A DNA stretch of 64,000 nt from a virus (IMGVR_UViG_3300026085_000093:32001-96000), one strand, 5' to 3'. Positions 3,443 through 22,387 are shown, counted from the stretch's first letter. Numbers and translations are program-made. The notes: a model not told the origin generated them from the sequence alone.

Positions 3443-6142
3443 ATGAGTTATGTAGATGCATTCTTTGACCGTGATCAAGATATCATTCGTGTTGTAGAAC
3501 GCAAAGATGGAAAGCGACATTTCCACGAATATCAAGCAAAATATACATTTTATTATGAAGATCCTAGAGGCAAATATAAAAGTGTCTATGGCGATCCTCT
3601 TACACGTATTGTGTGTAAAAACACAAAAGACTTTAGAAAAGAAGTTGCTATTAACAAAGGCAAGAACTTGTTCGAAAGCGACATTAATCCTATCTTTCAA
3701 TGTTTAAGTGAAAATTATCTTAATCAAGATGCACCCAAACTAAACATTGCGTTTTGGGATATTGAGACGGACTTTGATCCAGAGCGTGGCTTTGCTCCAG
3801 TTGAAGATCCGTTTATGCCAATTACTGCTATTACTGTATGTTTACAATGGCTAAACAGTGCGCTAATTACACTTGCTGTTCCACCTAAAGGTATGAAGCA
3901 TGAAGATGCTGTTGCTATGTGTAAAGAACGTTGGGGAGACGAAGTAATACTTTTCACTAATGATAAGAACGGCGATGGTGAAAGACAAATGTTACAGACG
4001 TTCTTAGACTTAATTGAAGATGCAGATGTACAAAGTGGTTGGAACTCAGAAGGTTATGATGTTCCGTATACTGTTAATAGAATTAAACGTGTACTCAGCA
4101 ACGATGATACAAGACGTTTTTGTTTATGGGGACAGTTGCCCAAGAAGCGTGAATATGAAAAATTTGGTAAAACGTCAGAAACATATGACTTTGTAGGTCG
4201 TGTGCATTTAGACAGTTTGGAACTATATCGAAAATACACATATGAAGAACGTCATACATATAGACTAGATGCGATTGGTGAAATTGAAGTAGGCGAAAAC
4301 AAAACTGTTTATGAAGGCACACTTGATCAATTGTATAATCAAGACTTTGAAACATTTATTGAATATAACAGACAAGACGTTGCACTACTTGACAAACTAG
4401 ATAAGAAATTACGTTTTATTGATTTAAGCAATTCAATTGCACATGAAAATACAGTGCTTCTACAAACAACAATGGGTGCTGTTGCTGTAACAGAGCAAGG
4501 TATTATCAACGAAGCACACAACAGAGACTTACGTGTACCAAATCGGCCAAAGCGTGATGACACAGAAAGCACACAAGCCGCTGGTGCTTATGTTGCGTTT
4601 CCTAAAAAAGGTGTACACAAATGGATCGGTTCAATGGACTTGAACTCACTGTATCCAAGTGTGATTCGTGCGTTGAATATGGCTCCAGAAACTATCATAG
4701 GACAAATACGTCCTGAAATTTCTGAAGCTCGTGTTACTGAAGATATGGGGTTAAAGAAAAAGTCGTTCGCAGGTAGTTGGGAAGGACGTTTCAGCACAGA
4801 AGAATACGAAGCAGTTATGGAACAACGCAAAGATGTTGCACTAACTGTTGACTGGGAAGATGGTCGTTCAGATGTATTAAGTGCTGCCGAAATACATAAA
4901 CTTGTTTTTGATTCAAACATGCCTTGGATGCTTAGTTCAAATGGCACTATTTTTACTACAGAATTTGAAGGCGTTATTCCAGGTATCCTAAAGCGTTGGT
5001 ATGCAGAGCGTAAAGACATGCAAAAGATGCTTAAGAAAGCAAAAGACGCTAAAAATGATGCGGAAATTGAATACTGGGATAAAAGGCAACTTGTTAAAAA
5101 AATTAACTTGAACAGTTTGTATGGTGCTATTTTGAATCCAGGTTGTAGATTTTTTGATAAGCGTATCGGTCAATCAACTACACTCACAGGTCGTACTATT
5201 GTTAAGCACATGAGTGCAGAAGTAAACAAAGTTATCACAGGCAAATACGATCACGTAGGAGAAAGTGTTATCTATGGTGACACAGACTCTGTGTACTTTA
5301 GTGCATATCCGACATTACGTAAAGAAATCGAAGCAGGTAATATTCCTTGGAGTAAAGACAATGTAATTACATTATATGATCAAGTAGCAGAAGCAGCAAA
5401 TGCTACGTTCCAAGAATTTATGCTAAAGGCATTTCATTGTCCAAAGAGTCGTTCAGATGTTATTGCCGCAGGTAGAGAAATTGTTGCAGAAAGCGGATTG
5501 TATATTACAAAGAAGCGTTATGCGGCACTAGTGTATGATGTAGAAGGTTTCCGTTCAGATGTAGATGGCAAACCAGGTAAAGTAAAAGCAATGGGCTTGG
5601 ACTTGCGTAGATCAGATACTCCAGTGTTTATGCAAGAGTTCTTAAGTGAAATTCTTCTTATGGTGCTACAAGACAAACCAGAAAAAGAAATCCTAGATCG
5701 TATTACTACGTTCAGAAAAGAATTTTCACAACGTCCAGGTTGGGAAAAAGGCACACCAAAACGTGCAAACAAGATTGGACACTATCAGCGTCTTGAAGAA
5801 CGCCAAGGCAAGGCCAATATGCCAGGGCACGTTAGAGCAAGCATCAATTGGAATACGCTAAAACGCATGAACGGCGACAAGTATTCGCAAGAGATTGTAG
5901 ATGGCATGAAAGTTATTGTTTGTAAATTAAAGCAAAATCCATTAGGGTTTACTTCAGTAGCATATCCTACAGATGAACTACGTATTCCAGAATGGTTTAA
6001 GGAACTACCATTTGATGATGCAGCAATGGCAGAAACTATTATTGACAACAAACTAGATAACTTGATCGGTGTGTTGAACTATCCACTAGAAGATACAAAA
6101 CAGCACACTACATTTAACAGTTTGTTTGAATTTGGAGTATAG
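3443..6142 (+). CDS. polB: DNA polymerase, family B (899 aa)
   Basis: Exo motifs WDIET, GWNSEGYD; polymerase motifs SMDLNSLYPS, KINLNSLYG, YGDTDS, KKRY. No intein-sized insertion. Confidence 0.97.
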   Translation: MSYVDAFFDRDQDIIRVVERKDGKRHFHEYQAKYTFYYEDPRGKYKSVYGDPLTRIVCKNTKDFRKEVAINKGKNLFESDINPIFQCLSENYLNQDAPKLNIAFWDIETDFDPERGFAPVEDPFMPITAITVCLQWLNSALITLAVPPKGMKHEDAVAMCKERWGDEVILFTNDKNGDGERQMLQTFLDLIEDADVQSGWNSEGYDVPYTVNRIKRVLSNDDTRRFCLWGQLPKKREYEKFGKTSETYDFVGRVHLDSLELYRKYTYEERHTYRLDAIGEIEVGENKTVYEGTLDQLYNQDFETFIEYNRQDVALLDKLDKKLRFIDLSNSIAHENTVLLQTTMGAVAVTEQGIINEAHNRDLRVPNRPKRDDTESTQAAGAYVAFPKKGVHKWIGSMDLNSLYPSVIRALNMAPETIIGQIRPEISEARVTEDMGLKKKSFAGSWEGRFSTEEYEAVMEQRKDVALTVDWEDGRSDVLSAAEIHKLVFDSNMPWMLSSNGTIFTTEFEGVIPGILKRWYAERKDMQKMLKKAKDAKNDAEIEYWDKRQLVKKINLNSLYGAILNPGCRFFDKRIGQSTTLTGRTIVKHMSAEVNKVITGKYDHVGESVIYGDTDSVYFSAYPTLRKEIEAGNIPWSKDNVITLYDQVAEAANATFQEFMLKAFHCPKSRSDVIAAGREIVAESGLYITKKRYAALVYDVEGFRSDVDGKPGKVKAMGLDLRRSDTPVFMQEFLSEILLMVLQDKPEKEILDRITTFRKEFSQRPGWEKGTPKRANKIGHYQRLEERQGKANMPGHVRASINWNTLKRMNGDKYSQEIVDGMKVIVCKLKQNPLGFTSVAYPTDELRIPEWFKELPFDDAAMAETIIDNKLDNLIGVLNYPLEDTKQHTTFNSLFEFGV

Positions 6143-6143
6143 C

Positions 6144-6422
6144 ATGAAAAGTCCTATAAATGAACTACAACAACTAATGATTATCACCAGTGAAGAATGT
6201 GGCGAATTAATCCAAGTTTGTAGCAAAATTACGAGAAAGTATAAAAACGCTGGACAAGTTAATAAAGAATGGCGGCAGAAATTATTAGAAGAACTTGGCG
6301 ATGTACAGTGTATGATTGAACTTATGATTGATCATGGAATTGTTAATCATGTTGAAATTGCTAAACGCTCTAATGTAAAGCGTGAAAAATTAAAAAAGTG
6401 GAGTACTATAATCAATGAGTGA
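6144..6422 (+). CDS. mazG: MazG-like nucleotide pyrophosphohydrolase
   Basis: SEECGEL ... EELGDV acidic motifs; ATG 6144 just after the polB stop. Confidence 0.8.
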   Translation: MKSPINELQQLMIITSEECGELIQVCSKITRKYKNAGQVNKEWRQKLLEELGDVQCMIELMIDHGIVNHVEIAKRSNVKREKLKKWSTIINE

Positions 6423-6666
6423 AGAATCAAAACTTATTCTTATTACAGACTTTATAGAACAAAAGTTACGCAAAGAAAAAGAACTAGAATATTATCTAGA
6501 AGAACTCCAAAAATTACAAACCAAGATTGGATACTTACGTAGAGAAGTTGATCTAACTAACACTATAATTAACTTGATTAAACATGAGCAGGTTTATGAC
6601 ATTAAAGACAATATGTTAGAAAATAACAAGGATAAACTAATAGGGAGCAATGAAGAAATATCTTAG
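6415..6666 (+). CDS. Hypothetical coiled-coil protein
   Basis: Overlap-coupled ORF, 83 aa. Confidence 0.75.
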   Translation: MSEESKLILITDFIEQKLRKEKELEYYLEELQKLQTKIGYLRREVDLTNTIINLIKHEQVYDIKDNMLENNKDKLIGSNEEIS

Positions 6667-6919
6667 AAGACTTTTTATAGCATTTAGTATTTTCATAAAT
6701 GTTATACTTGGAGGCAGGATTAATCAAACATTTAGTGCAAGGAACTGGCAAAGAAAACGTGACAATAAAATAAATCTAGTGTATATTATTAATACAATAT
6801 TTAGGAATAATGATCACTGTTGGGAAAGTTGGGTAAAATGGACAATAATAAATGGTGCAATAAAAAGGTATGATGAAGAAATGGGTTTTGATAGAAAGAG
6901 GAGGCATTGGTACGAATGA
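6650..6919 (+). CDS. Hypothetical protein
   Basis: GGAG RBS, 89 aa, coupled to its neighbours. Confidence 0.7.
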   Translation: MKKYLRRLFIAFSIFINVILGGRINQTFSARNWQRKRDNKINLVYIINTIFRNNDHCWESWVKWTIINGAIKRYDEEMGFDRKRRHWYE

Positions 6920-7341
6920 AAGTAGGATTTACCGCATCGACCTTCGATTTACTTCACGCCGGGCATATACAAATGCTACGTGAAGCAAAAGAACAGTGTG
7001 ACTATCTTATATGCGGATTACAAATGGATCCCAGTGTAGATAGGCCAGAAAAGAATCCACCTGTACAAACAATAGTGGAACGTTATACACAACTCAAAGG
7101 AGTTAGTTATGTAAATGAAATAATTCCTTATGCAACTGAACAAGACTTAGAAGATATCTTGACAATGTATCATATTGATGTTAGAATACTAGGTGAAGAG
7201 TATCGTGAAAAGGATTTTACTGGCAAGGATATTTGCAAGAAGCGGGGTATCCAGCTACATTTCAATAAAAGAGATCACCGCTTCTCAAGCAGCGATTTAA
7301 GAAAACGAGTATGCGAAAGGGAAAGAAATGCCACTACCTGA
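6916..7341 (+). CDS. Cytidylyltransferase (glycerol-3-phosphate cytidylyltransferase/TagD-like)
   Basis: FTASTFDLLHAGH (HxGH), C-terminal RxxxxSSS; ATGA overlap at 6916. Confidence 0.88.
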   Translation: MKVGFTASTFDLLHAGHIQMLREAKEQCDYLICGLQMDPSVDRPEKNPPVQTIVERYTQLKGVSYVNEIIPYATEQDLEDILTMYHIDVRILGEEYREKDFTGKDICKKRGIQLHFNKRDHRFSSSDLRKRVCERERNATT

Positions 7342-7495
7342 AGGACGTAAAGCACTAACTGATCAAGATATGGTAATCTTGCTACACAATATAGCAAGAG
7401 ATTTAGAAAACACAGACCTTAGACTTACAGCAGATAGGTTTAGTGAACTAGCCAAAGCAGCAAGCGAAGCACAGCATAGGGCGAAGCAAGGATGA
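7328..7495 (+). CDS. Small hypothetical protein (55 aa; not in track)
   Basis: MPLPEGRKALTDQDMVILLHNIARD...QG*; tiles the gap with coupled overlaps. Confidence 0.65.
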   Translation: MPLPEGRKALTDQDMVILLHNIARDLENTDLRLTADRFSELAKAASEAQHRAKQG

Positions 7496-7647
7496 TACGA
7501 AATACTGATCCAACATGTGATGAACTTAGAAAAATTTTTATAGAAAATGGATTACAATTTTATATCAAAAAAGAAAAGAAGGGTATTGTAAAAGTACACT
7601 TTATAACTAGAGAGGAAGAAAATGATGTGGACACTGTTGATAATTAG
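7492..7647 (+). CDS. Small hypothetical protein (51 aa; not in track)
   Basis: ATGA overlap; MIRNTDPTCDELRKIFIENG...VDN*. Confidence 0.6.
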   Translation: MIRNTDPTCDELRKIFIENGLQFYIKKEKKGIVKVHFITREEENDVDTVDN

Positions 7648-7783
7648 TTCACTTGTAGATATTAATGAATACAAAGTTACAAGATTTAATGATTATCCTA
7701 CAGAAAAACAATGCAGCATTAATGCAGCAGTTCTTGAAGCATTGTTTACAGAAGGAGAAAAGGCGGTATGCATAAATGAATAA
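7622..7783 (+). CDS. Small protein with hydrophobic N-terminus and two Cys (53 aa; not in track)
   Basis: GAGG RBS; MMWTLLIISSLV...QCS...AVCINE*. Confidence 0.6.
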   Translation: MMWTLLIISSLVDINEYKVTRFNDYPTEKQCSINAAVLEALFTEGEKAVCINE

Positions 7784-8492
7784 GTTTATTTTTGATGTCG
7801 ACGGAACACTAACTCCAAGTAGACAAACTATCGATCCTGAGTTCAACAAATTCTTTTTTGATTTTGTAACAACTAATGATGTATATTTGATTACAGGCAG
7901 TGACAAAGATAAAACAGTTGAACAAATTGGTAATGTTTTGTTTTGTACAGCAAAAGTTGTTTATAATTGTTCTGGAAACGATGTTTGGAGTCACGGTGTT
8001 AATGTAAAAACCAATGACTGGACGGCACCAAAAGAACTTATGGATCTAATGCATGGTTGGCTACAAGCAAGTAATTTTCCTTTACGCACAGGTAACCACA
8101 TCGAAGTGCGTCCAGGTTGTGTTAACTTTAGTATAGTTGGACGTAACTGCACACTAGGCGAACGTAAATTATATATTAAACACGATCTCGAAAGTAGAGA
8201 ACGTGAAAGTATTGCTTATCAAATTAACACAGAATTTGAAAACATAACAGCAAAAGTAGGAGGAGAAACAGGTATTGATATCTATCCTACAGGTTGTGAC
8301 AAATCACAAATTATTAATGATTTTAACGACCATGACAAACTAATCTTTTTTGGCGATAGACAAGAACCTGGTGGTAATGACGAACCATTATCAACTGCGA
8401 TTGCCAAGAGAGGCAATGGTAAATCCTATCATGTCAAAGACTGGAAGGATACAATGGAGATCTTAAATGAAAGTTATGTTAACAGGCCATAG
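7776..8492 (+). CDS. HAD-family phosphomannomutase (eukaryote-type PMM)
   Basis: FDVDGTLT, NFSIVGRN, GGETGIDI, FFGD...GGND as in PMM-type HAD IIB enzymes. Confidence 0.85.
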   Translation: MNKFIFDVDGTLTPSRQTIDPEFNKFFFDFVTTNDVYLITGSDKDKTVEQIGNVLFCTAKVVYNCSGNDVWSHGVNVKTNDWTAPKELMDLMHGWLQASNFPLRTGNHIEVRPGCVNFSIVGRNCTLGERKLYIKHDLESRERESIAYQINTEFENITAKVGGETGIDIYPTGCDKSQIINDFNDHDKLIFFGDRQEPGGNDEPLSTAIAKRGNGKSYHVKDWKDTMEILNESYVNRP

Positions 8493-9243
8493 AGGCTTTA
8501 TTGGGAGTCATTTACTAAAAAGACTTACAAAAAAACATAGTGTTGTAGGGTTTGATCTTAAGGACGGTTGGGATAGAGACAAACTTAACAACAGCCAAGA
8601 TCTAACAACTTGTGACCTAAAAGAAGAATTTGATTTAATTATACACCTAGCAGGAAAAAGTGGTGTTCGTGAATCAATGAAGGATCCTGCAGGTTATTGG
8701 CTTCATAATGTAGAAGTCACCAAAAGACTTTTAGAACGCTATCCAGACACACGTATGTTGATTGCAAGTTCAAGTTCAGCATATGAGCCACATCTAAATC
8801 CATATGCAGCAAGCAAGTATATCGTAGAAGAAGCAGCATCATGTTATTCCAATACGCTATGTATGAGATTCCATACAGTTTATTCTGATAATCCTCGAAA
8901 AGGTATGTTTATGCAAAAGTATCTAGATGGAGAACTTGAATATGTTACAAACCATTACAGAGATTTTATACATATTGAAGATTTATGCGATGCAATAGAA
9001 TTATGTATGAATAGCAAGTATAAAGGAGAAATTGATATAGGTACAGGACATCCTTTTCGTATCCGTGACTTTGTAGAAGATTTGCCCATCCGTCTAAATA
9101 CCCCAAACGAAAGACAATGGACTTGTGCAAATACGGAAAAAATTAAAACACTAGGCTTTAAACCTAAATACTCAGTAGAAAAACTATTGACAAACAGCAG
9201 ATTAGGCAATATAATAGAATTTAACAATGGAGAAACAGTATGA
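8467..9243 (+). CDS. NAD-dependent epimerase/dehydratase (extended SDR)
   Basis: TGHRGFIG, HLAG, SSS, YAASK, RDFIHI. Confidence 0.92.
   Translation: MKVMLTGHRGFIGSHLLKRLTKKHSVVGFDLKDGWDRDKLNNSQDLTTCDLKEEFDLIIHLAGKSGVRESMKDPAGYWLHNVEVTKRLLERYPDTRMLIASSSSAYEPHLNPYAASKYIVEEAASCYSNTLCMRFHTVYSDNPRKGMFMQKYLDGELEYVTNHYRDFIHIEDLCDAIELCMNSKYKGEIDIGTGHPFRIRDFVEDLPIRLNTPNERQWTCANTEKIKTLGFKPKYSVEKLLTNSRLGNIIEFNNGETV
9187..9215 (+). promoter_or_regulatory. Perfect-consensus sigma70 promoter upstream of the clamp/TGT-like pair
   Basis: TTGACA(9187)-17 nt-TATAAT(9210), then GGAG and ATG 9240. Confidence 0.85.
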
Positions 9244-9968
9244 AAGATATCTTACAAGATGTTGTGTCGCACACACATAGTCTCGGTTTTATTACAACAT
9301 TAAAAGTTGTTGCAGAACAAGAGACTAGTATCGAAAGTATGGCAGAAGATAGAAGTGTTGTACTTAGTGCAACAACTCATTCGCCTGTGTCGGAATTTGT
9401 AGGTACATTTGGTATGCCAGATTTAAATAAACTTGCATATCATTTGAAGAACCCAGAATACCAGGACAAAGCAAAAATTGATGTGGTACAGGAAGAACGC
9501 AACGGAGAAATTATTCCAACACATATTCATTTTGAAAATGAAGTTGGCGACTTCCAAAACGACTATCGCTTTATGAATAAAGCAATTATCGAAGAAAAAT
9601 TAAAAAGTGTTAAATTCAAAGGTAGCACATGGGATGTAGAATTTACTCCAAGTGTTGCAGCAATTGCACGTATGAAACTAATGGCTGGTGCTCATTCAGA
9701 AGAACCAGTATTCCAGGTCAAAACAGAAGATGGAAATCTAAACTTTTACTTCGGTGACTTGAATACACACGCAGGTAAGTTTACATTCCAACACGATGTA
9801 GGTGGAACCTTGCAACACACTTGGGCATGGCCAGTTGCGCAAACTATTTCTATTTTAGGACTAGATGGCGATAAGAAAATTAGCATCACAGATCAAGGTG
9901 CTATGATGATTACAGTAGACAGTGGTATGGCCAAGTATGACTATATCCTGCCAGCACAAAGTAAATAA
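9240..9968 (+). CDS. Putative DNA polymerase sliding clamp (T4 gp45-like)
   Basis: 242 aa, two-domain beta/alpha pattern and size typical of gp45/PCNA-like clamps, C-terminal YILPA; replication-gene context. Fold-level call. Confidence 0.6.
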   Translation: MKDILQDVVSHTHSLGFITTLKVVAEQETSIESMAEDRSVVLSATTHSPVSEFVGTFGMPDLNKLAYHLKNPEYQDKAKIDVVQEERNGEIIPTHIHFENEVGDFQNDYRFMNKAIIEEKLKSVKFKGSTWDVEFTPSVAAIARMKLMAGAHSEEPVFQVKTEDGNLNFYFGDLNTHAGKFTFQHDVGGTLQHTWAWPVAQTISILGLDGDKKISITDQGAMMITVDSGMAKYDYILPAQSK

Positions 9969-11425
9969 TGAATACAAATTTAACTGCAACACAAAATGAC
10001 TATGCTGTTTTTCTGCCTGCGTTGAGTGGCTTTTATGCTACTTACGTGGGCAAACAGCGTTTTGAAAACTATGTTGATCCTGCTAGAATACCAAGCAATT
10101 TAAATAATGGCGTTGAAAGTCTTAACTATCTAAATAAAGATCAAGGACAGTTTCAATATAAGTGGACATTGTACTCAGCAGGACATGCTGACTTAGATAC
10201 TACAAAACATGCACCTAAGGAAGATATGGTGCGTAACAGAGATAGAGCAAACACTTGGCTACTTGGTGACTCAGGTGGCTTCCAGATTGGTAAGGGTGTT
10301 TGGGAAGGTGACTGGAAAGATCCAAACTGTCCAAAAGCACAAAAGAAACGTGATGGTGTATTGCGTTGGATGGATGCTTATATGGATTATGGTATGATAC
10401 TTGATATTCCCGCCTGGGTTGCACGTTCACCTGCAGGTGCAAAAGCAACAGGCATTAGTACATATGCAGAAGCAGTTAAAGCAACACGTATTAATAATGA
10501 TTATTGGATGAAGCATCGTACAGGTGCCTGTAAGTTTTTGAACGTACTACAAGGCGAAAATCATGCAGATGCAGATGACTGGTACGATCAAATGAAAGAC
10601 TACTGTGATCCAAAAAAATATGAAGATCATTTTAACGGATGGTCAATGGGTGGACAAAATATGTGCGATGTACACCTTGCTCTTAAACGTGTTGTTTCAC
10701 TACGTTTTGACGGATTGCTTGAAAAGGGCAAACATGATTTTATGCACTTCTTAGGAACTTCAAAACTTGAGTGGGCTACACTACTAACAGACATTCAACG
10801 AGCAGTGCGCAAATATCATAACGAAAACTTTACTATCACATTTGATTGTGCTAGTCCTTTCCTTGCAACTGCTAATGGACAAATCTACTGTGAACTGGAA
10901 ACAGAAGACAGAAGTAAATGGGTATATCGAATGGTGCCAAGCATTGACGATAAAGCACTAGCAAACGATACTACTCCGTTTAGTCAAGCATTTGTAAGAG
11001 AAGGAAAACACCCTAGTTTCTTAGATTCACCAATAACAACAGGATTACAAGCCAAAGATATTTGTATCTATGGTCCGGGTGATCTAAATAAAATAGGCAA
11101 AGAAGGCAAGACCTCATGGGACAGTTTTTCATATGCTGTTATGATGGGTCATAATGTATGGATGCACATTAACGCAGTGCAGGAAGCAAACCGCCAATAT
11201 GATGCAGGTATTATTCCTAATATGTTAATACAAGAAAAGTTTGATAGAATTGCGTTTAGAGATATTGTTGATGCAATTTTTGAAACCGATAACAGACAAA
11301 AAGCCGAATCTCTCATTTTAGAATTTTCTAAATATTGGGACAGTATTATAGGTACTAGAGGCAATACAGGAAAGCGTATTGTAAATGCACAAACGCAATT
11401 CAACAATCTATTTGAGGAACTATAA
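9968..11425 (+). CDS. dpdA: tRNA-guanine transglycosylase-fold protein, probable DNA 7-deazaguanine transglycosylase (DpdA-like)
   Basis: TGT motifs DSGGFQ, ILD, VLQG, SMGG, HFLG, FDCASP; clustered with queD/folE/queE-like genes. The CxCxxC zinc site is absent. Confidence 0.78.
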   Translation: MNTNLTATQNDYAVFLPALSGFYATYVGKQRFENYVDPARIPSNLNNGVESLNYLNKDQGQFQYKWTLYSAGHADLDTTKHAPKEDMVRNRDRANTWLLGDSGGFQIGKGVWEGDWKDPNCPKAQKKRDGVLRWMDAYMDYGMILDIPAWVARSPAGAKATGISTYAEAVKATRINNDYWMKHRTGACKFLNVLQGENHADADDWYDQMKDYCDPKKYEDHFNGWSMGGQNMCDVHLALKRVVSLRFDGLLEKGKHDFMHFLGTSKLEWATLLTDIQRAVRKYHNENFTITFDCASPFLATANGQIYCELETEDRSKWVYRMVPSIDDKALANDTTPFSQAFVREGKHPSFLDSPITTGLQAKDICIYGPGDLNKIGKEGKTSWDSFSYAVMMGHNVWMHINAVQEANRQYDAGIIPNMLIQEKFDRIAFRDIVDAIFETDNRQKAESLILEFSKYWDSIIGTRGNTGKRIVNAQTQFNNLFEEL

Positions 11426-11607
11426 TGATGGGACATAAAGAACATTTAGTTGAACTGAAAAGAAAACATAGAAAACTAGATGAAGAAATTATTGAACTTG
11501 AAAAATCGTATGTTGTAGATGACGAAATTAGAAAATTAAAAACAAAAAAACTTTGGTATAAAGATGAAATTCATAGACTGGAGAATATAATTGCGTTCAG
11601 AGAATGA
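11425..11607 (+). CDS. DUF465/YdcH-like small coiled-coil protein
   Basis: L..KH..LD..I...E....D..I..LK..KL..KDEI pattern. Confidence 0.7.
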   Translation: MMGHKEHLVELKRKHRKLDEEIIELEKSYVVDDEIRKLKTKKLWYKDEIHRLENIIAFRE

Positions 11608-11767
11608 AATTAGATTAGAAGCATTACAAATGGCCCTAGAAGAAATTGAAAAAATCATTGACAGTATGCATAAAAACAATTATACTAATGAAGAAATTAA
11701 TGAATACAACAAAAAACGTTGGGACATTTGGAACGAAATGTATAAGGTAAAAAATGGCAAAGGTTGA
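11591..11767 (+). CDS. Small hypothetical protein (58 aa, TTG start; not in track)
   Basis: (M)RSENEIRLEALQMALEEIEKIIDSMHK...KG*; fills the gap. Confidence 0.55.
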   Translation: MRSENEIRLEALQMALEEIEKIIDSMHKNNYTNEEINEYNKKRWDIWNEMYKVKNGKG

Positions 11768-12068
11768 AGAAACAGTAGCAGCCCTAAAGGGTATACCTAC
11801 AAAAGATGAATTAGTTGCATTGTTAGAAAAGCAAGTCGTTGAAGTAACTTTTAATAAATTAGACGGCACTGAAAGAGTAATGCCTTGTACTCTTATGCCT
11901 TCATTCTTTCCAGATCCAAAGAAAGATACAACACAAAAACACGAAAAAAATGTTGTTGTGTGGGCAATTGAATCAAACGCTTTTAGAAGTTTTAGGTACG
12001 ATCGTGTTAAAAAAGTAGAAGTTATTCAATATGGCAACGGCGGCAACGAATGGGAGGCTCAATATTAA
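11754..12068 (+). CDS. WYL_2/DUF2693-like SH3-type beta-barrel protein
   Basis: VTFNKLDGTERVM..TL ... VVW.....FRSFRYD signature of T4-like phage WYL_2 proteins. Confidence 0.7.
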   Translation: MAKVEETVAALKGIPTKDELVALLEKQVVEVTFNKLDGTERVMPCTLMPSFFPDPKKDTTQKHEKNVVVWAIESNAFRSFRYDRVKKVEVIQYGNGGNEWEAQY

Positions 12069-12622
12069 TGAATAGAGATTATTCTACAGGTTCTGCAGAT
12101 GATGCTATTTACTTTATCGGTAACGAAGTAGAACGCACACCTGCATTTGGCTTAAAAACTTTGTTTATTACAGGCAAACAGCCTTTAGAAGAAATTAAAG
12201 GCATTGCTAATGTGAATAAAATCAAGCATTTGTTTTTTGGTTCTAATCATAGTTTTAAACCCGAGACTAGTGAAGATTGGGACTGGTGGGAATCGATGAT
12301 CAAGGATTGTCTAGATGAAGGTTACTATTGCAGTTTAGATATTCCTATTGCACTTGCAGAAGAATTTCTCGAAAGTGGTTTGACAGAATACGAAAATTTT
12401 ATTCCACAACTAAGAGTTCCTATTCCATATATTAAACTATGGAATTATAACACTATGTTAAAAATCGATGATAAAGATTTTAAGGCAACTAATCCAGGTG
12501 TTTGGTGTCATAGTTTACACGACTTAATGGATAGGAAAAAATTTACTGACTGGTCTAATTATGCATCAGATGAAATTATTGAGTTGACAACTATCGAAAA
12601 TGGTACTATAGTAAATGAGTAA
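12068..12622 (+). CDS. Hypothetical protein inside the deazaguanine cluster
   Basis: TAATG overlap at 12068; FIGNEVERTPAFGLKTLF...HLFFGSNHSF; no family recognised. Confidence 0.8.
   Translation: MNRDYSTGSADDAIYFIGNEVERTPAFGLKTLFITGKQPLEEIKGIANVNKIKHLFFGSNHSFKPETSEDWDWWESMIKDCLDEGYYCSLDIPIALAEEFLESGLTEYENFIPQLRVPIPYIKLWNYNTMLKIDDKDFKATNPGVWCHSLHDLMDRKKFTDWSNYASDEIIELTTIENGTIVNE
12584..12612 (+). promoter_or_regulatory. Sigma70-type promoter directly before the queD-like gene
   Basis: TTGACA(12584)-17 nt-TATAGT(12607); ATG at 12615 implies a near-leaderless transcript or use of a downstream ATG. Confidence 0.6.
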
Positions 12623-13076
12623 CAACAAAGAACCCGAGCGCTATTATGATTGGATGCTTTGGAAAATGCGACAGGAAGATAATAAATTGGCAAATAGTTT
12701 AGAAAATGCAAAACGTAGTATTTGGGTAACATTCCGTAAAGAAGGTATCCATTTGTATCCTGCGGCAAAAGACGACCCGGCACTTGCAACAGGTGGTTGG
12801 GATGATGTAAGTTTCTTAGGTGTAGCACATAGACACATCTTTCATTTCAAAGTACAAATTCAAGTAACACACAATGATAGAGATATTGAATTTATTCAGT
12901 TCAAGCGTTGGCTCGAAAGTCTTTATGATGATAAGGTTATTGAACTTAATCACAAGTCTTGCGAAATGATCGCAGACGACTTGTATATCCAGATTAACAA
13001 CAAATATCCCGGCCGCTTTGTTGTTATTGATGTCGCCGAAGATGGCGAAAATGGCTGTCAAATTGTTTACCCATAG
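12615..13076 (+). CDS. queD: QueD-like T-fold enzyme (6-carboxytetrahydropterin synthase-like)
   Basis: HRHIFHF metal-binding His motif, IEFIQFK, SCEMIA (cf. T/SxExxA in PTPS/QueD); pathway context. Confidence 0.65.
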   Translation: MSNNKEPERYYDWMLWKMRQEDNKLANSLENAKRSIWVTFRKEGIHLYPAAKDDPALATGGWDDVSFLGVAHRHIFHFKVQIQVTHNDRDIEFIQFKRWLESLYDDKVIELNHKSCEMIADDLYIQINNKYPGRFVVIDVAEDGENGCQIVYP

Positions 13077-13094
13077 AAAAAAGGATTAAGGTAA

Positions 13095-13307
13095 ATGACT
13101 ATTACATTCAATCGTGACGCTTACAATAAAGTGTTTAATGATTTGGATAAATTCCGCGACTACTGTCGTTTCGAAGGAAAGGTCTTTAACGAGGCTGATT
13201 TATATAAAAAGGATTCGCCTATTTGGCAGTCTTATATTAAACATCAAAATTATATTCGTGCTAAGTCACGTAACGCAAGCCGAAGTTTTAACAATCGGAG
13301 AAACTAA
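13095..13307 (+). CDS. Hypothetical protein (70 aa)
   Basis: AAGG RBS; coupled to the next gene. Confidence 0.75.
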   Translation: MTITFNRDAYNKVFNDLDKFRDYCRFEGKVFNEADLYKKDSPIWQSYIKHQNYIRAKSRNASRSFNNRRN

Positions 13308-14356
13308 TGACAATTTACATTGTAGATATCGAAGCAGTTGATACACGCTACACAAAGCAATGGAAAGACTATCTTCCGAAGCAACTACAACGATCTACAA
13401 ACGAAAATGTAAAAGTCATTAGTGGTGGGGAAACGCCTCAGGCAACAACGCCTGGGGCATTTCTCAATTTTGGTGGAACTAATGTTTATAAGTCCAAACA
13501 ACTAGAAATTATAGGCGAAATGTTTTGCAAAGGGCAAATTCAAAGTGGAGATTATTTTTTATATACCGATGCTTGGAACCCTACTGTTATTCAGTTACGT
13601 TATATGGCAGAACTCTTGGACGTTGATGTTAGCATCGGCGGGCTTTGGCATGCTGGTAGTTATGACCCTCATGACTTTCTTGGCAGGTTAATTGGAGATA
13701 AACCGTGGGTACGTCATGCAGAACAGGCAATGTATGAATGTTACGATGATAACTTTTTTGCAAGTAATTTTCATATTGAATTATTTGCACAAAGTTTAGA
13801 CATTGATCCAGATAAAACACATCGTGTAGGCTGGCCTATGGAATATTTACGTAGTAGTTTAGATCAATACAAAGGTATGGAGAAGCGTAATCTTATTCTT
13901 TTCCCACATCGTCTTGCCCCAGAAAAACAAGTTGATGTATTCCATGATTTGAAACAGCAACTTCCGCAATATGAATTTGTTGTATGTCAAGAGCAAATGC
14001 TTTCTAAAAATGAATATCACAACTTGTTAGGAGAAGCAAAACTTGTGTTTAGTGCTAACTTACAAGAAACACTTGGTATTAGTTGGTACGAAGGCGCACT
14101 TGTTGATGCTATTCCTATGGTTCCTGATCGCCTTTCTTACAGTGAAATGGCATTGCCTGAATTTAAATATCCTAGCCAATGGACTGAAGATTATAGTGCA
14201 TATAGAAAACATAGAGGAGATATTGCTGCCAAGATTGTTGACTATATGGAAAACTACAATGACTATCTTATAAGTTTAGAAAAACAGCGTATTAGACTTA
14301 ACAAAGAATTTTTTGACGGAACAGAACTATACAGGAATATTGCAGATGGGCAATGA
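13307..14356 (+). CDS. GT-B glycosyltransferase (GT4-like)
   Basis: LWHAGSYD, ILFPHRLAPEKQ, LQETLGISWYEG (ExxGxxxxE donor-binding motif), PDRLSY. Confidence 0.8.
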   Translation: MTIYIVDIEAVDTRYTKQWKDYLPKQLQRSTNENVKVISGGETPQATTPGAFLNFGGTNVYKSKQLEIIGEMFCKGQIQSGDYFLYTDAWNPTVIQLRYMAELLDVDVSIGGLWHAGSYDPHDFLGRLIGDKPWVRHAEQAMYECYDDNFFASNFHIELFAQSLDIDPDKTHRVGWPMEYLRSSLDQYKGMEKRNLILFPHRLAPEKQVDVFHDLKQQLPQYEFVVCQEQMLSKNEYHNLLGEAKLVFSANLQETLGISWYEGALVDAIPMVPDRLSYSEMALPEFKYPSQWTEDYSAYRKHRGDIAAKIVDYMENYNDYLISLEKQRIRLNKEFFDGTELYRNIADGQ

Positions 14357-14666
14357 TGATGATTATATTTTTAGTGTAAGTACAGACCACACTTATTCAG
14401 TTAGCATAAGTGATATCACAACAACAACTATAGACACTAGTACATTTGATGATCTAATTACATTAGATGGAGATAACGGTATTACACTTATCATGGACGA
14501 TCCTGTTGATTTTGTAGATCAAATGCCTTCATTAGATAAAATAAAAGATATGTGTCAACATTATCCTGGCTTAAAAAAAGCTTTTAAAAACTTTGAATCA
14601 GTTTACAAAATGGTTCATCAAGACTATAAAGGTAATCACGAACCAAAAATAGAGGTACCATTTTAA
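14346..14666 (+). CDS. Hypothetical acidic protein
   Basis: ATG 14346 in the track ORF 14313-14666. Confidence 0.7.
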   Translation: MGNDDDYIFSVSTDHTYSVSISDITTTTIDTSTFDDLITLDGDNGITLIMDDPVDFVDQMPSLDKIKDMCQHYPGLKKAFKNFESVYKMVHQDYKGNHEPKIEVPF

Positions 14667-14893
14667 TGCAACATCCAATTGAAGAATGGATCAGACGTAT
14701 CAATGCAATGAAAGATTTATGCATACAAGCACATAGAGTGCGTAACGAATTTGCAGAAATCAGTTATAAACAATATGACGAATCTACTTGTAAGCACTTA
14801 CTAGAACAAGTTCAATCAATGGCAGCAGGTATTGCAAACGAAAAAATAACTGATATAAAAACTGAAATGGATGAGTGGAAAAAGAATGATTAA
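14666..14893 (+). CDS. Hypothetical protein (75 aa)
   Basis: TAATG coupling. Confidence 0.7.
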   Translation: MQHPIEEWIRRINAMKDLCIQAHRVRNEFAEISYKQYDESTCKHLLEQVQSMAAGIANEKITDIKTEMDEWKKND

Positions 14894-15467
14894 GAAACAT
14901 TATTATTCGTGGCAAGACGTAGAAAAGATGTGTGCAAGTATTGTCATGCAGATGTATAAAGATAATTGGCGTCCTGATTACATTGTAGGTATTACACGAG
15001 GTGGTAACATTCCTGCTACTATTATTAGTAACATGACAGGCATCCGTTGTGAAGCACTTAAAGTAAGTTTGCGTGATAACGGTAATGGCGAAAGCGAAAG
15101 CAACTGTTGGATGGCAGAAGATGCATTTGGATATGAAGATATGAAACTTCAAACCCATAACCAAGACATTCAAGCAAGTGCAAATGTTGATATTATCACT
15201 ATAGAAAACAAAAGTAATATCCTTATTGTAGACGATATTAACGACACTGGTGCAACATTTAACTGGATTGTTAATGACTGGCAAGCCAGTTGTTTACCTG
15301 ATCATGATCGATGGAGCAGAGTTTGGGACGAAAACGTTCGTTTCGCAACATTAACTGAAAACTTATCAAGTGCCTGCGGATTAGTGCGTTATTATGCACA
15401 CGAAATTAATAAAGCAGAAGAAAACGTTTGGTTAGTTTATCCTTGGGAGAATGTAAATGAGTACTGA
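14886..15467 (+). CDS. Type I purine phosphoribosyltransferase (Gpt/XGPRT-like)
   Basis: IVGITRGG, PRPP loop ILIVDDINDTGATF, W.VYPWE. Confidence 0.88.
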   Translation: MIKKHYYSWQDVEKMCASIVMQMYKDNWRPDYIVGITRGGNIPATIISNMTGIRCEALKVSLRDNGNGESESNCWMAEDAFGYEDMKLQTHNQDIQASANVDIITIENKSNILIVDDINDTGATFNWIVNDWQASCLPDHDRWSRVWDENVRFATLTENLSSACGLVRYYAHEINKAEENVWLVYPWENVNEY

Positions 15468-15772: not shown

Positions 15773-16456
15773 ATGAGCAAATCAAAACAAATTACAGCCC
15801 GCTTGCAAGATGCAGGCATTCGCTATTGGGCCGGCGACAACATTTCAGAAGTCCTACAAGCAGGCGACAAAGAAGAACTTATTGAAGATGCTACAGTAGC
15901 ATTTGAAGGTGTACTAGATGCACTACTAATCGATCGACATAACGATCCTAATTCACAAGGTACTGCAAGGCGTCTTGCTAAGATGTACTTTAATGAAATT
16001 ATGGCAGGACGATATGATCCTATTCCAAGTGCTACAGCATTTCCAAACCATGTAGATGAAGGTTACAAAGGTATGTTAGTTGTAAGAAGCGAACTTAAAA
16101 GTATGTGTTCGCATCATCATCAACCAGTAAACGGTGTAGCATATATTGGTATTATTGCCGCTGATACACTTATCGGACTTTCAAAGTATACACGTATTGC
16201 ACAATGGTGTGCTAGACGTGGTACACTACAAGAAGAACTTAATAATGTTATTGCAAATGAAATACAGAAAGCAACAGGAAGTCCTAACGTAGGTGTGTAC
16301 ATTCAAGCAACACATGGTTGTTGTGAAAATAGAGGTATTGGTGCACACAGCAGTCTTACACAAACAACTGTACTACGTGGTGCATTCTATGATGATCCTA
16401 GTACTAAGAAAGAGTTTATGGATAATATAAAACTACAACAGGAATTTGCTTGCTAA
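15773..16456 (+). CDS. folE: GTP cyclohydrolase I
   Basis: SMCSHH, GLSKYTRI, LQEEL, HGCCENRG. Confidence 0.96.
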   Translation: MSKSKQITARLQDAGIRYWAGDNISEVLQAGDKEELIEDATVAFEGVLDALLIDRHNDPNSQGTARRLAKMYFNEIMAGRYDPIPSATAFPNHVDEGYKGMLVVRSELKSMCSHHHQPVNGVAYIGIIAADTLIGLSKYTRIAQWCARRGTLQEELNNVIANEIQKATGSPNVGVYIQATHGCCENRGIGAHSSLTQTTVLRGAFYDDPSTKKEFMDNIKLQQEFAC

Positions 16457-16562: not shown

Positions 16563-17201
16563 ATGTCAAGGTTAATTGCATTTGGTTGTAGTTTGACATA
16601 CGGCGATAATTTAAAAGATATATGGCCGCACAATGAAGAGTCGAGCAAACTTGCTTGGCCTTCTGTTGTTTCTAAACTATTAAATTTAGAATGCATTAAC
16701 AAAGGAGTAAGTGGTTATTCAAATAAAGAAATACTTAACGATTTGTTGACATTTGAATACCAAAAAGGTGACACAGTTATTTGTTTATGGACATTTCATC
16801 AGAGACATGCAATACTTACTGAAGAATTATCAACACCTGCAATTTCAATTAAACCGTGGGAAATGAAAAACAATAAAGCAATTAAGTCATATTTTAAAAA
16901 TCTTTACACAGATTATGATTCTAATTGGACAACTAACTTATACATGAGAGTAGCGAAATCTTACTTTGACGAGCATAACATAATTAATTACCATGCTAAT
17001 GCAAAACCATGGATCTTCCAACAGGAAAAATGGAATAACATAAATTTTATTCCAGTAGAAGACATTGATACAATTCGAAACAAAGAAAGCAGTGATTTGG
17101 CAAAAGACAAACGTCATCCAGGTTACAGAGTGCATAAAGAGTTTGGTACAAATATTGCAAATTATATAAAGGAACAGACACATGAAATTACGTTACAGTG
17201 A
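16563..17201 (+). CDS. SGNH/GDSL-like hydrolase or acyltransferase
   Basis: FGCSLTYG (block I Ser), GVSGYSN, C-terminal DxxHPG. Confidence 0.6.
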   Translation: MSRLIAFGCSLTYGDNLKDIWPHNEESSKLAWPSVVSKLLNLECINKGVSGYSNKEILNDLLTFEYQKGDTVICLWTFHQRHAILTEELSTPAISIKPWEMKNNKAIKSYFKNLYTDYDSNWTTNLYMRVAKSYFDEHNIINYHANAKPWIFQQEKWNNINFIPVEDIDTIRNKESSDLAKDKRHPGYRVHKEFGTNIANYIKEQTHEITLQ

Positions 17202-18075
17202 AGCATTTTATAGTGTACAAGGTGAGGGTAAATACGTAGGAGTACCTAGCGTATTTTTACGTACATTTGGTTGCAACTTTCGTTGTATGAATTTTGGATT
17301 ACCTAAGGACAAAGATCGTTGGGAGCAACACGCAGAAGGCAATCGGTACAATCCAGAAGTAAAGGCACTACTTGACGCAGGCGTACACGAAACTACAGAA
17401 AAATTTGAAGATTTACCTATTATTCACACAGGCTGTGATACATATGCTAGTATCTATCCAGAGTTTAAACACTTTAACAAACTTGCAGAAGTAGACGAAG
17501 TTGTAGATCATTTGATTAGTTTATTGCCAGAAGGCAAATGGACACAAGACAATGGACAAGATATTCATTTGATTATGACAGGTGGTGAACCATTACTTGC
17601 ATGGCAACGACTTTACGTAGAGTTGTTTGAACATCCGAAAATGAAAGATTTAAAAAATGTCACGTTTGAAACAAACACTACACAATTTTTACATGATGAT
17701 TTGTTCGATTACATCAACAATAATGACAGAATTGAATGGACATTTAGTTGTTCTCCTAAACTTTCCGTCAGCGGAGAAACTTGGGAGTCAGCTATCAAAC
17801 CTGATGTCCTGCGGGATTACGCTCGTTGTGACAGCAGTTCTGTTTATCTTAAATTTGTTGTTGCTGATATGGATGATGTTGATGAAGTTAGTAGAGCAGT
17901 TAGTGAATATCGTGCAGCGGGTGTGGAATGCCCTGTCTATCTTATGCCGCTTGGCGGTCGCTCGGAAGGGTACAACATCACGGTACAAGAGGTGGCGAAG
18001 CTCTGTATGGAACGAGGCTGGAGGTTCACTCCGAGACTCCACATTAGCCTATTCGGAAATGCCTGGGGAACATAA
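17182..18075 (+). CDS. queE: 7-carboxy-7-deazaguanine synthase (radical SAM) with an expanded cluster loop
   Basis: FYSVQGEG..G.PSVFLRTFGCNFRC...GCDT, TGGEP, ETN, SPK, PRLH. Confidence 0.92.
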   Translation: MKLRYSEAFYSVQGEGKYVGVPSVFLRTFGCNFRCMNFGLPKDKDRWEQHAEGNRYNPEVKALLDAGVHETTEKFEDLPIIHTGCDTYASIYPEFKHFNKLAEVDEVVDHLISLLPEGKWTQDNGQDIHLIMTGGEPLLAWQRLYVELFEHPKMKDLKNVTFETNTTQFLHDDLFDYINNNDRIEWTFSCSPKLSVSGETWESAIKPDVLRDYARCDSSSVYLKFVVADMDDVDEVSRAVSEYRAAGVECPVYLMPLGGRSEGYNITVQEVAKLCMERGWRFTPRLHISLFGNAWGT

Positions 18076-20492: not shown

Positions 20493-21515
20493 ATGGCGAA
20501 ACCAAAAATCGCGGGCACCTCATCGGTGACAGGATTTAACAATCACGGAACAATTAACTTAAACGAATACGGATATGAACATATCCGCGAGCAAAAGAAC
20601 GCTGAGTTTCAGCATTTTGAATTTATAGATTTAGATACAATTGACGAAAATAATCCAGATCTTTGGAATATGTCAATTAGACAAGAACAGAATACAGAAG
20701 AGCGCATCGAAAGTATTCAGGCTAGTTTTTTCTATCATGGATTTTCAACAAAATATGCACCGCCTTGTTTAGGTACAGATGGTAAATTTAGAGATGGTAG
20801 AGGTCGTGTTATTGCTGCAAAACGCAATGAAGAAAGATGGCTTCCAGTAGCAGTATTTGATTACGAAGACGATAGTGAACGTAACTATGTAACTAATGGA
20901 CTTATTGCAAACGAGCATCCGCCAGCAGTTCCTACACTAAGAAAAGACTTTGAAACAGCGGGCATCGAGCTTTGTAGAATAGGACAACTAAAACCAATTG
21001 CAGAAGAAATCGAATGGTGGCTGTATAACGATGTAGATATTGAAAAGTTTTTTAATAACAAAAGTGGTAACATTACAAAAATTATAAACAATATTATTTC
21101 TGGTTACGAAGCAGGTCAAGATTTAGGACTTGTAAGAACACAAAGCAGATCAGGTTGGGTGCAATGGTGTAAACAAAATGGTTACGAAATAAATGACAAA
21201 AATCGTATTCTAGTAAGTGTAGATAATGATACATACCCTTTAAGAACATTTGTACACATCCTCGAAGCATGTAACAAAAAGTTTGATCCGGTTGAGATTA
21301 TTCTTTTTACAAATTCTTATAATCCAAAGAAAGCAAAAGATGGTGTAAGAAACTTCGAAAAAACACTTGAAAAATTATACACTTTGTCGTATAATATGGC
21401 ATATGCAGTTATTAGAGATAGCGAACGCCCTTGGAAAATATTAGGTGCAGTTCCGCAGATCAAAGATAAACATGCACTAGAAGGCAACAAGTTAGTAGAC
21501 ACAAAGGACTATTAA
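20493..21515 (+). CDS. ParB/Srx-like N-terminal domain protein
   Basis: IESIQASF..HG....PP.....RDGRGRVIAA....W.PV pattern of ParB-N domains. Confidence 0.65.
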   Translation: MAKPKIAGTSSVTGFNNHGTINLNEYGYEHIREQKNAEFQHFEFIDLDTIDENNPDLWNMSIRQEQNTEERIESIQASFFYHGFSTKYAPPCLGTDGKFRDGRGRVIAAKRNEERWLPVAVFDYEDDSERNYVTNGLIANEHPPAVPTLRKDFETAGIELCRIGQLKPIAEEIEWWLYNDVDIEKFFNNKSGNITKIINNIISGYEAGQDLGLVRTQSRSGWVQWCKQNGYEINDKNRILVSVDNDTYPLRTFVHILEACNKKFDPVEIILFTNSYNPKKAKDGVRNFEKTLEKLYTLSYNMAYAVIRDSERPWKILGAVPQIKDKHALEGNKLVDTKDY

Positions 21516-22387
21516 TGACTTATAAAGTTTACAACCAGGACTGTATTTCTGGTATGCGTGAACATGTAGCAGACGGGTCAGTGGATTTGATATTCACTGA
21601 TCCTCCTTATGGTATCGAAGGCGATAAACTTGATGTTGTTTATCACAGAGATGAAAGCAATGTAGTTCCAGGTTATGTAGAAGTTCCGTTAGAAACATAC
21701 GATACATTCAGCAAAGATTGGATTTCAGAGTGTGCAAGATGTTTGCGACCAGGTGGTAGCATTTACATTGTAAGCGGATATACTAATCTACACCATGTGT
21801 TAAATGCATTACATGCAACAGACTTACAAGAAATTAATCATATAATTGCAAAGTATTCATTCGGTGTAAGCACTAAAAAGAAATGGGTAAGCAGTCACTA
21901 TCATGTGCTGTTTTGGCAAAAGCCAGACAAAGGTAAACAAAAACGTACATTCAATACAAATGTATATTACTCAGATCAAAAAGACAGTTATCATGATAGA
22001 TTAACTGTGCAAGATCTGCCACGTGATTACAAGCCAGGACAAATAAAAAACAAAAATCAACTTAGCGAAGATTTTATTGAAAAATTTGTTTTATACAGCA
22101 GTAATAGAGAAGAAACTGTAATGGACCCATTTTGTGGCGGATTTACAACTGCACGTACTGCACTACGTTATGGTAGAAACTTTATTGGCTTCGAATTAAA
22201 CAAAAATGCATATGATGCTTTTTTGCCAACACTAGGTCAAGTGAATCCAAAAGATGATCCTATCCCAATCAATCCTAGTCCAGAAGAACTTGCAAAACGT
22301 AACAAAATGCGTGAAGGCTGGGCAAATAAAAGAGCACAACGTAAAGCAGAACTAGACAATAATTTATTTGAGACTGACGATGGCTAG
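21515..22387 (+). CDS. DNA amino-methyltransferase (m6A/m4C, beta-class order)
   Basis: TDPPY motif IV N-terminal; MDPFCG motif I C-terminal; GFELN. Confidence 0.92.
   Translation: MTYKVYNQDCISGMREHVADGSVDLIFTDPPYGIEGDKLDVVYHRDESNVVPGYVEVPLETYDTFSKDWISECARCLRPGGSIYIVSGYTNLHHVLNALHATDLQEINHIIAKYSFGVSTKKKWVSSHYHVLFWQKPDKGKQKRTFNTNVYYSDQKDSYHDRLTVQDLPRDYKPGQIKNKNQLSEDFIEKFVLYSSNREETVMDPFCGGFTTARTALRYGRNFIGFELNKNAYDAFLPTLGQVNPKDDPIPINPSPEELAKRNKMREGWANKRAQRKAELDNNLFETDDG

Follow-up and report, generated by a model that had tools for sequence, protein, structure and literature searches.

A phosphoribosyltransferase conserved in phage 7-deazaguanine modules and its possible role in guanine recycling

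Introduction

The 64,000-nucleotide stretch of viral DNA analysed here (IMGVR_UViG_3300026085_000093:32001-96000, hereafter the window) carries a purine phosphoribosyltransferase (PRTase) gene in a cluster for the modification of DNA with 7-deazaguanine, and a MazG-like gene directly after the gene of its DNA polymerase, PolB. Among the closest described counterparts is the 7-deazaguanine (dDG) system of Cellulophaga phage phiST, made up of FolE, QueD, QueE, DpdL, DpdA3 and a MazG/dUTPase-like protein (PMC10516641). The window shares with it FolE, QueE, DpdL and a cluster without QueC, and the phiST genome also contains a homologous Gpt-type PRTase (25% identity) and a MazG-like gene. In contrast to the ~260-residue DpdA3, the DpdA of the window has 485 residues, a DSGGFQ motif and a PolB-like tail. 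The window also differs in that a glycosyltransferase is a core member, the cluster lacks a kinase-like gene and MazG is unlinked.

The Pseudomonas jumbo phages PA5oct, Paride and MIJ3 (Wroclawvirus) share with the window a block of polB, clamp, dpdA, glycosyltransferase, dpdL, PRTase, queE and RNase H genes. However, folE and a true queD of PA5oct lie near ribonucleotide reductase (RNR) and thymidylate synthase, and the C-terminal motif of its PRTase is degenerate. The DpdA1 systems of the Queuovirinae (9g, CAjan, iggy) resemble the window in post-replicative exchange by DpdA, in a dpdA gene near the clamp and polymerase genes and in a PRTase tied to FolE. They differ in the use of QueC (preQ0/G+), in the DpdA subfamily and in a PRTase that is fused and keeps an active-site lysine. 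Substitution at the level of the nucleotide pool is known from the 2-aminoadenine (dZ) phages, in which PurZ, MazZ, DatZ and DpoZ act, the hydrolases are conserved and linked, and no transglycosylase takes part. The likeness of the window to these phages is loose (a base-to-nucleotide enzyme plus a hydrolase); its hydrolase is not conserved and its transglycosylase is a core member.

An earlier note on this DNA proposed that the PRTase and MazG form a second, pre-replicative route for base substitution or, alternatively, that the PRTase salvages guanine released by DpdA. Our comparisons show that 7-deazaguanine modules conserve the PRTase but not MazG; for the role of the PRTase, the second alternative is the best-supported reading.

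Identity and linkage of the phosphoribosyltransferase

The gene of the Gpt-type 6-oxopurine PRTase lies on the plus strand (14886..15467, with the ATG at 14886 and the stop at 15467). Its match to Pfam Pribosyltran (E 2.8e-10) exceeds the cut-off, and the best NCBIfam model is the xanthine PRTase PRK09177, under the equivalog cut-off. The closest solved structures are the Gpt-type purine PRTases 1vdm, 4z1o and 4trb and the E. coli xanthine-guanine PRTase (XGPRT). The protein is of type I, and the RGG loop, the phosphoribosyl pyrophosphate (PRPP) loop DDxxDTG (DDINDTG, intact) and the C-terminal aromatic stacking motif WxxxPW[DE] are common to it and to E. coli Gpt, Sulfolobus Gpt-1/2 and yeast Hpt1. 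Unlike these enzymes, it has a long insertion before the PRPP loop, and Asn159 takes the position of Lys115 of E. coli XGPRT, so that the conserved lysine at the O6 site of Gpt-type PRTases is missing. Asn is found at this position in 120 of 121 close homologues. The PRPP loop and D120 are invariant among homologues, and D120 aligns with Asp92 of E. coli XGPRT, which we take to be the N7-binding residue. Formation of guanosine or xanthosine monophosphate (GMP or XMP) from PRPP is predicted from these motifs.

Synteny was counted in 73 related loci with a polB-to-clamp interval, 31 loci with dpdA, folE and queE, and 79 PRTase-anchored loci, all of one clade with PolB identity of ~60% and up; cultured phages were compared through annotated homologues among 50,697 records. 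The PRTase is present in 31/31 of the dpdA, folE and queE loci, and a module gene is close by in 79/79 of the PRTase-anchored loci. The XGPRT-like PRTase that the earlier note placed in a deazaguanine cluster is thus borne out by Pfam, by the structures and by all 31 loci. However, the gene does not stand directly between queD and folE as described there: four open reading frames (ORFs), including the glycosyltransferase, intervene upstream and one intervenes downstream.

Among cultured phages, PRTase homologues are confined almost entirely to 7-deazaguanine phages of unrelated groups, namely phiST, immuto_2-6A, the CP220 group (Firehammerviruses), MaInes, BUCT-ZZ01 and the Queuovirinae; PA5oct likewise carries the gene. 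MaInes combines it with queC-queD-queE, a DpdA3-like gene, polymerase, RNR, deoxynucleoside monophosphate (dNMP) kinase and folE, and the order in BUCT-ZZ01 is queE-PRTase-x-queD-folE. In phages such as 033B, Quinobequin-P09, ply2008005c and NP1 (Queuovirinae and related small siphoviruses), FolE carries the PRTase domain as an N-terminal fusion, with the PRPP loop and WxxFPW intact in the first three. FolE is the GTP-consuming first step of the pathway. In 9g, CAjan and iggy, Queuovirinae relatives of the phages with this fusion, DpdA substitutes 16-28% of guanine, motif-specifically in CAjan and iggy (PMC10484667). No RNR match (PF02867) was found in 033B or ply2008005c, and no MazG match in 033B, Quinobequin-P09 or ply2008005c. 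The fusions are annotated merely as GTP cyclohydrolase (L102:6821-7723, L106:4899-5792, L107:4995-5888).

An ordinary auxiliary purine-salvage gene could have come to lie in a replication and nucleotide operon by coincidence, and the positions of the PRTase away from the que genes in phiST and CP220 and the size of its family (at least 7,993 clusters) would agree with this. But the gene stands inside the que operons of the unrelated phages immuto, BUCT-ZZ01 and MaInes and occurs as a fusion with FolE, and none was found among annotated cultured phages that lack deazaguanine genes; coincidence is therefore very improbable. The PRTase is nevertheless an optional part of DpdL systems, being missing from 10 of 13 DpdL lineages, including the DpdA3-like D479, Ahp1 and MA9V-3, in searches that also used a custom profile. 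In the literature searched, the PRTase is not mentioned as a pathway component and 7-deazaguanine is not reported as a PRTase substrate.

The window is part of a 236-kb viral contig, ~66% complete, and its source is a PA5oct-like marine jumbo phage; the sequencing runs with matching contigs are marine or aquatic. An independent run from 2014 gave a contig that covers 5542-7177 with zero differences, and another contig covers 13605-15423. Because both loci recur unchanged in independent contigs, the PRTase and MazG-like genes are not assembly artefacts. RNA contigs overlap parts of the locus, though contigs alone are no measure of expression.

The predicted base and the glycosyltransferase

The gene at 12615..13076 (plus strand), labelled queD in the earlier note, encodes a DpdL-type T-fold protein and putative decarboxylase of 7-carboxy-7-deazaguanine (CDG). 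It has no PF01242 (PTPS) match, and its LGVAHRHIF conforms to LxxxHRHxF, the DpdL motif (Cui et al. 2023, PMC10516641). All 48 collected homologues have LxxxH[RF]HxF and 0/48 have the QueD motif CxxxHGH; the protein is 33% identical to the DpdL of phiST (E 7e-11) and 51% to the ACP17 homologue. QueD is thus ruled out. A T-fold protein with LxxxHRHxF in a cluster without QueC places the locus in the DpdL-type branch. In Vibrio phage Bakedbeans and Chryseobacterium phage MA9V-3, DpdL makes up the C-terminal portion of a longer ORF (L095:6221-7372, L097:5431-6312).

FolE (GTP cyclohydrolase I; 15773..16456, plus strand; NCBIfam E 3e-38) and a QueE-like radical SAM CDG synthase (17182..18075, plus strand; NCBIfam QueE models E 7.5e-12), a homologue of PA5oct QueE, are both under the model cut-offs but clear. 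Neither a true QueD (CxxxHGH) nor an RNR, and no clear QueC, was found on the ~66%-complete contig; PA5oct has QueD and RNR in a region missing from it. A QueC-like PP-loop ORF distant from the cluster (38059-38802, minus strand) reaches 21.9 bits against the Pfam QueC cut-off of 22, and no counterpart was found in two related contigs (G002, G003) or PA5oct; it was not counted as QueC on these grounds. It lies within a long minus-strand block with several radical SAM/SPASM genes, a B12-radical SAM gene and a TctA gene. Because the cluster has DpdL and no QueC, the modified base is likely 7-deazaguanine rather than CDG or preQ0, as judged from gene content. CDG or preQ0 as the substrate of the PRTase, proposed in the earlier note, is not supported on the same grounds.

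The glycosyltransferase (13307..14356, plus strand) is of the GT-B fold and GT4-like (model pLDDT 87), and its top Foldseek matches are glycogen synthase, GlgM, MshA and BshA. It is a core cluster member and adjoins dpdA or dpdL in PA5oct, ACP17, X1 and Phosso. It may yield glycosylated 7-deazaguanine. A likeness to the queuosine mannosyltransferase GTDC1 was not confirmed, the matches being generic GT-B ones. As an alternative to guanine recycling, the PRTase could act on a deazapurine without feeding the polymerase, either by scavenging or detoxifying surplus 7-deazaguanine or CDG, or by supplying a ribosylated intermediate to the glycosyltransferase or DpdA. Asn159 is present in the window clade and BUCT-ZZ01, both with a glycosyltransferase, whereas phiST, immuto, MaInes and the FolE-fused PRTases keep the lysine, a distribution in favour of such a role. 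However, ACP17, X1 and Phosso have a glycosyltransferase and DpdL but no PRTase, and we know of no biochemical precedent; we regard this role as improbable.

DpdA and its polymerase-like tail

The long DpdA-like DNA guanine transglycosylase (9968..11425, plus strand; 485 residues; model pLDDT 80) has Foldseek top matches that are all tRNA-guanine transglycosylases (TGT), with a best E of 3.9e-8. D101, D146 and D293 are invariant among homologues, giving a TGT fold with the catalytic aspartates in place; from the motifs, we take them to be equivalent to Asp102, Asp156 and the nucleophile Asp280 of TGT. The protein is 36% identical to its PA5oct homologue and has no phmmer or profile match to the ~260-residue DpdA3 of phiST, immuto and CP220. 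Assignment as DpdA3, DpdA1 or ACP17-type was rejected for lack of a sequence match in a comparison with these three types.

The DpdA ends in FNNLFEEL (11400-11425), resembling the tail FNSLFEFGV (6110-6142) of the family B DNA polymerase (3443..6142, plus strand; PHROG 262, E 1.5e-190). Such an FxxLF-type tail ends 55 of 58 PolB homologues; in 45 of 59 DpdAs it is found among the last 45 residues, and it occurs in no PRTase, DpdL or clamp homologue. Of the 236 genomic ORFs, FxxLF endings are limited to PolB, DpdA and one antisense ORF. In ACP17 and X1, the DpdA tail resembles that of the phage's own polymerase, and the DpdAs of BUCT-ZZ01 and the Queuovirinae end in similar xxLF/FF tails; the DpdA3 proteins are without such a tail. 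T4-type polymerases use such a C-terminal tail for clamp binding. Because of this likeness, the DpdA is probably held on the clamp and acts on DNA behind the fork. The TGT fold, the intact aspartates and the PolB-like tail together point to base exchange on DNA.

The MazG-like gene and incorporation from the nucleotide pool

The small MazG-like all-alpha nucleoside triphosphate (NTP) pyrophosphatase (6144..6422, plus strand; PHROG 4856, E 3.8e-19; Pfam MazG, E 0.004, under the cut-off) has an intact acidic metal motif, EExxE...ExxD. Its ATG at 6144 is one base from the polB stop codon (6140-6142), and the adjacency described earlier is thus real. However, it is not conserved. Only 3 of 73 polB-to-clamp intervals have the gene after polB, all three with 96% PolB identity, and the slot in the other loci holds cupins, exonucleases or dehydrogenases, or is empty. 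One contig (run X6) joins 6141 to 6677 and bypasses the gene. The cultured phages that carry its closest homologues belong to various unrelated groups, and the similarity is weak (33-36%). MazG-family matches in relatives and PA5oct lie far from polB (~33 kb in PA5oct), and PF03819 matches occur in 5 of 13 DpdL phages, within the cluster only in phiST. No conserved, linked hydrolase of a canonical deoxynucleoside triphosphate is therefore present, and a role as the paired remover of deoxyguanosine triphosphate (dGTP) is not supported, given the synteny of a variable slot in which 70 of 73 relatives lack the gene. The MazG-like gene is an unrelated passenger in this slot and gives no sign of a second, pre-replicative route. 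Another PRA-PH/MazG-like pyrophosphatase, at genome positions 7289-7648 (L109:2290-2649), adjoins a GroES-like gene and is weakly similar to a hydrolase in the immuto que cluster (E ~1e-3).

In a pool-level route, the PRTase would make the 7-deazaguanine ribonucleotide, kinases and RNR would convert it into 7-deaza-dGTP, and PolB would incorporate it, with dGTP lowered by an NTP pyrophosphatase, for which the GroES-linked gene is more plausible than the polB-linked MazG. An unsubstituted 7-deaza base is easily accepted by polymerases, and DpdL would yield such a base. The change from lysine to Asn159 in the pocket agrees with such a substrate, PA5oct encodes RNR, a dNMP-kinase homologue and MazG, and a modified-dGTP route has been proposed for Campylobacter phages (PMC6884629). 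Within the cluster itself no linked nucleotide kinase was found; T5-like dNMP kinase homologues lie elsewhere in PA5oct and G002 (incomplete contigs). However, the intact PolB-tailed DpdA already accounts for insertion, the PRTase keeps the N7-contacting Asp, and most DpdL phages do without a PRTase. No AAA_28-type nucleoside monophosphate (NMP) kinase gene of the sort that adjoins dpdA3 was found in five incomplete clade contigs. Together with the unconserved adjacency of MazG and polB and the restriction pattern described below, these points make the route unlikely in the window phage.

Restriction pattern of PA5oct and site avoidance

PA5oct DNA resists EcoRI, BmrI, XbaI, BsaI and ApaLI out of ten enzymes, from which its authors inferred modified G in GA and/or GG (PMC12191111). 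The EcoRI, BmrI, XbaI and BsaI sites all contain GA or GG. The other G-containing enzymes of the panel have sites without GA or GG, 32-139 of each in PA5oct, ApaLI with 2 sites being the exception. Judged by these site sequences, the pattern fits partial modification at GA/GG and argues against incorporation from the pool. Low, motif-specific substitution, which the earlier note had named as one element of the outcome that would speak against its pre-replicative route, is thus approached in the closest cultured relative, though indirectly.

The genome of the window (G000) has an observed-to-expected ratio of 0.15 for AGCT, and G002 one of 0.00, with GATC at 0.99 and 1.03, respectively; G002 is wholly without GCAGC and GTAAC. 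This avoidance points to host restriction systems that the modification does not block. When GA/GG sites were compared as a group with the remaining G sites, no significant difference emerged in three metagenomic contigs (p 0.26-0.57). The fully substituted controls avoid G sites too (CATG at 0.05 in CP220; 0 CAGCTG sites against 12 expected in phiST). Given the null test and the like behaviour of the controls, site avoidance is at most a hint of motif-specific modification.

Guanine recycling as the preferred reading

On the observed gene identities, folds, motifs, conservation and fusion, we consider it somewhat probable that the PRTase recycles the guanine released by base exchange into guanosine triphosphate (GTP) for FolE. 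We infer from these the enzyme activities, the identity of the base, clamp binding and motif specificity in the window phage. The phage would make 7-deazaguanine itself and insert it after replication. FolE, QueD and QueE would convert GTP into CDG, the QueD being encoded probably in a stretch missing from the assembly or in the host genome, and DpdL would probably decarboxylate CDG to 7-deazaguanine. The long DpdA, probably clamp-held by its PolB-like tail, would exchange only some of the guanines in newly made DNA, probably those in GA/GG as in PA5oct, and the glycosyltransferase may decorate the product. Each exchange would spend one GTP and free one guanine. The PRTase would join this guanine with PRPP into GMP and so replenish GTP for FolE, and the removal of guanine would pull the reversible exchange forward. 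The PRTase would be an optional booster, because the hosts' own Gpt/Hpt can substitute for it, and the MazG-like gene after polB would have no part in the scheme. Guanine recycling would explain why the PRTase is fused with FolE, co-occurs with different DpdA subfamilies and end products, is enriched in heavily substituted genomes and is optional. The retained N7-contacting D120 also argues for it.

Several points weigh against guanine recycling. The replacement of the guanine-O6-binding lysine by asparagine suggests an altered base pocket, and guanine may not be the substrate; this unexplained change is the main reason why the rival roles are kept open. PRTase searches gave no match in the Queuovirinae 9g, CAjan and iggy, while all three 100%-substituted lineages have the gene, a hint that it may serve extensive substitution. 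For PA5oct, the digest gives indirect evidence: the five enzymes that cut are implied and not named, and 7-deazaguanine without a substituent might fail to stop some enzymes. No value from liquid chromatography-mass spectrometry for PA5oct or Paride DNA was found in the literature. Absences on the contig hold only within its ~66% completeness.

Fully substituted DpdA3 phages

All three lineages known with 100% substitution, phiST, immuto_2-6A and the Firehammerviruses (CP220), carry this same PRTase (PMC10516641 for the substitution). Cui et al. proposed that every one of these modifications arises after replication; neither DpdA3 nor DpdL showed activity in E. coli, and missing enzymes were suggested for the DpdA3/DpdL system (PMC10516641). 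The gene orders are MazG-dpdL-AAA_18-dpdA3 in phiST, PRTase-folE-PRA-PH-like hydrolase-dpdA3-dpdN-AAA_28 in immuto and HD/AAA-dpdA3-thymidylate kinase in CP220. NTP-pyrophosphatase-like genes thus lie near dpdA3 in phiST and immuto. In phiST a dNMP-kinase-like gene and RNR come after the PRTase, and in MaInes the PRTase likewise stands beside dNMP kinase and RNR. NMP-kinase-like genes near dpdA3 or DpdA3-like genes were seen in phiST, immuto, CP220 and MaInes (L091:6421-8583, L104:7980-12142, L243:3543-6036, L108:864-12169).

The pool-level idea fits these DpdA3 phages better than the window phage. A nucleotide-level route as their main route is a serious candidate, if somewhat short of an even chance. 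That the PRTase family marks such a route to 7-deazaguanine DNA in parallel to DpdA in the window phage is doubtful; the pre-replicative route of the earlier note is disfavoured there by the PolB-tailed DpdA, by the GA/GG pattern of PA5oct and by the missing PRTase in 10 of 13 DpdL lineages, and its claim is weak for this phage. If true, a nucleotide-level route would contradict the published all-post-replicative proposal. The PRTase, which all three fully substituted lineages carry, is an obvious missing element in reconstitutions, and a PolB-tailed long DpdA versus a tail-less, kinase-flanked DpdA3 predicts the route used by each phage. The deazaguanine module of the window is of the DpdL type and combines a long DpdA carrying the PolB-like tail with a glycosyltransferase and a conserved PRTase, the latter absent from the literature searched.

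Other features of the replication block

The order of the replication block is polB, a variable slot, the probable clamp, the DpdA-like gene, DpdL, glycosyltransferase, PRTase, folE, queE and RNase H. The putative sliding clamp (9240..9968, plus strand) was assigned from its position and from the annotation at the equivalent position in phage Phosso, and it is directly upstream of dpdA in nearly all loci. The cytidylyltransferase-like, phosphomannomutase-like and NAD-dependent epimerase genes between 6916..9243 (plus strand; PF01467, PF03332, PF01370) form a sugar-nucleotide block that is variable and missing in several related lineages. A conserved protein of unassigned function (12050..12622, plus strand) has weak barrel-like structural matches and no family in the Atlas; in nearly all loci its gene separates dpdA from dpdL, and its PA5oct homologue lies elsewhere (~252,600). 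An N6/N4 DNA methyltransferase (PF01555, E 4e-29) occupies 21515-22387, a variable slot immediately before RNase H.

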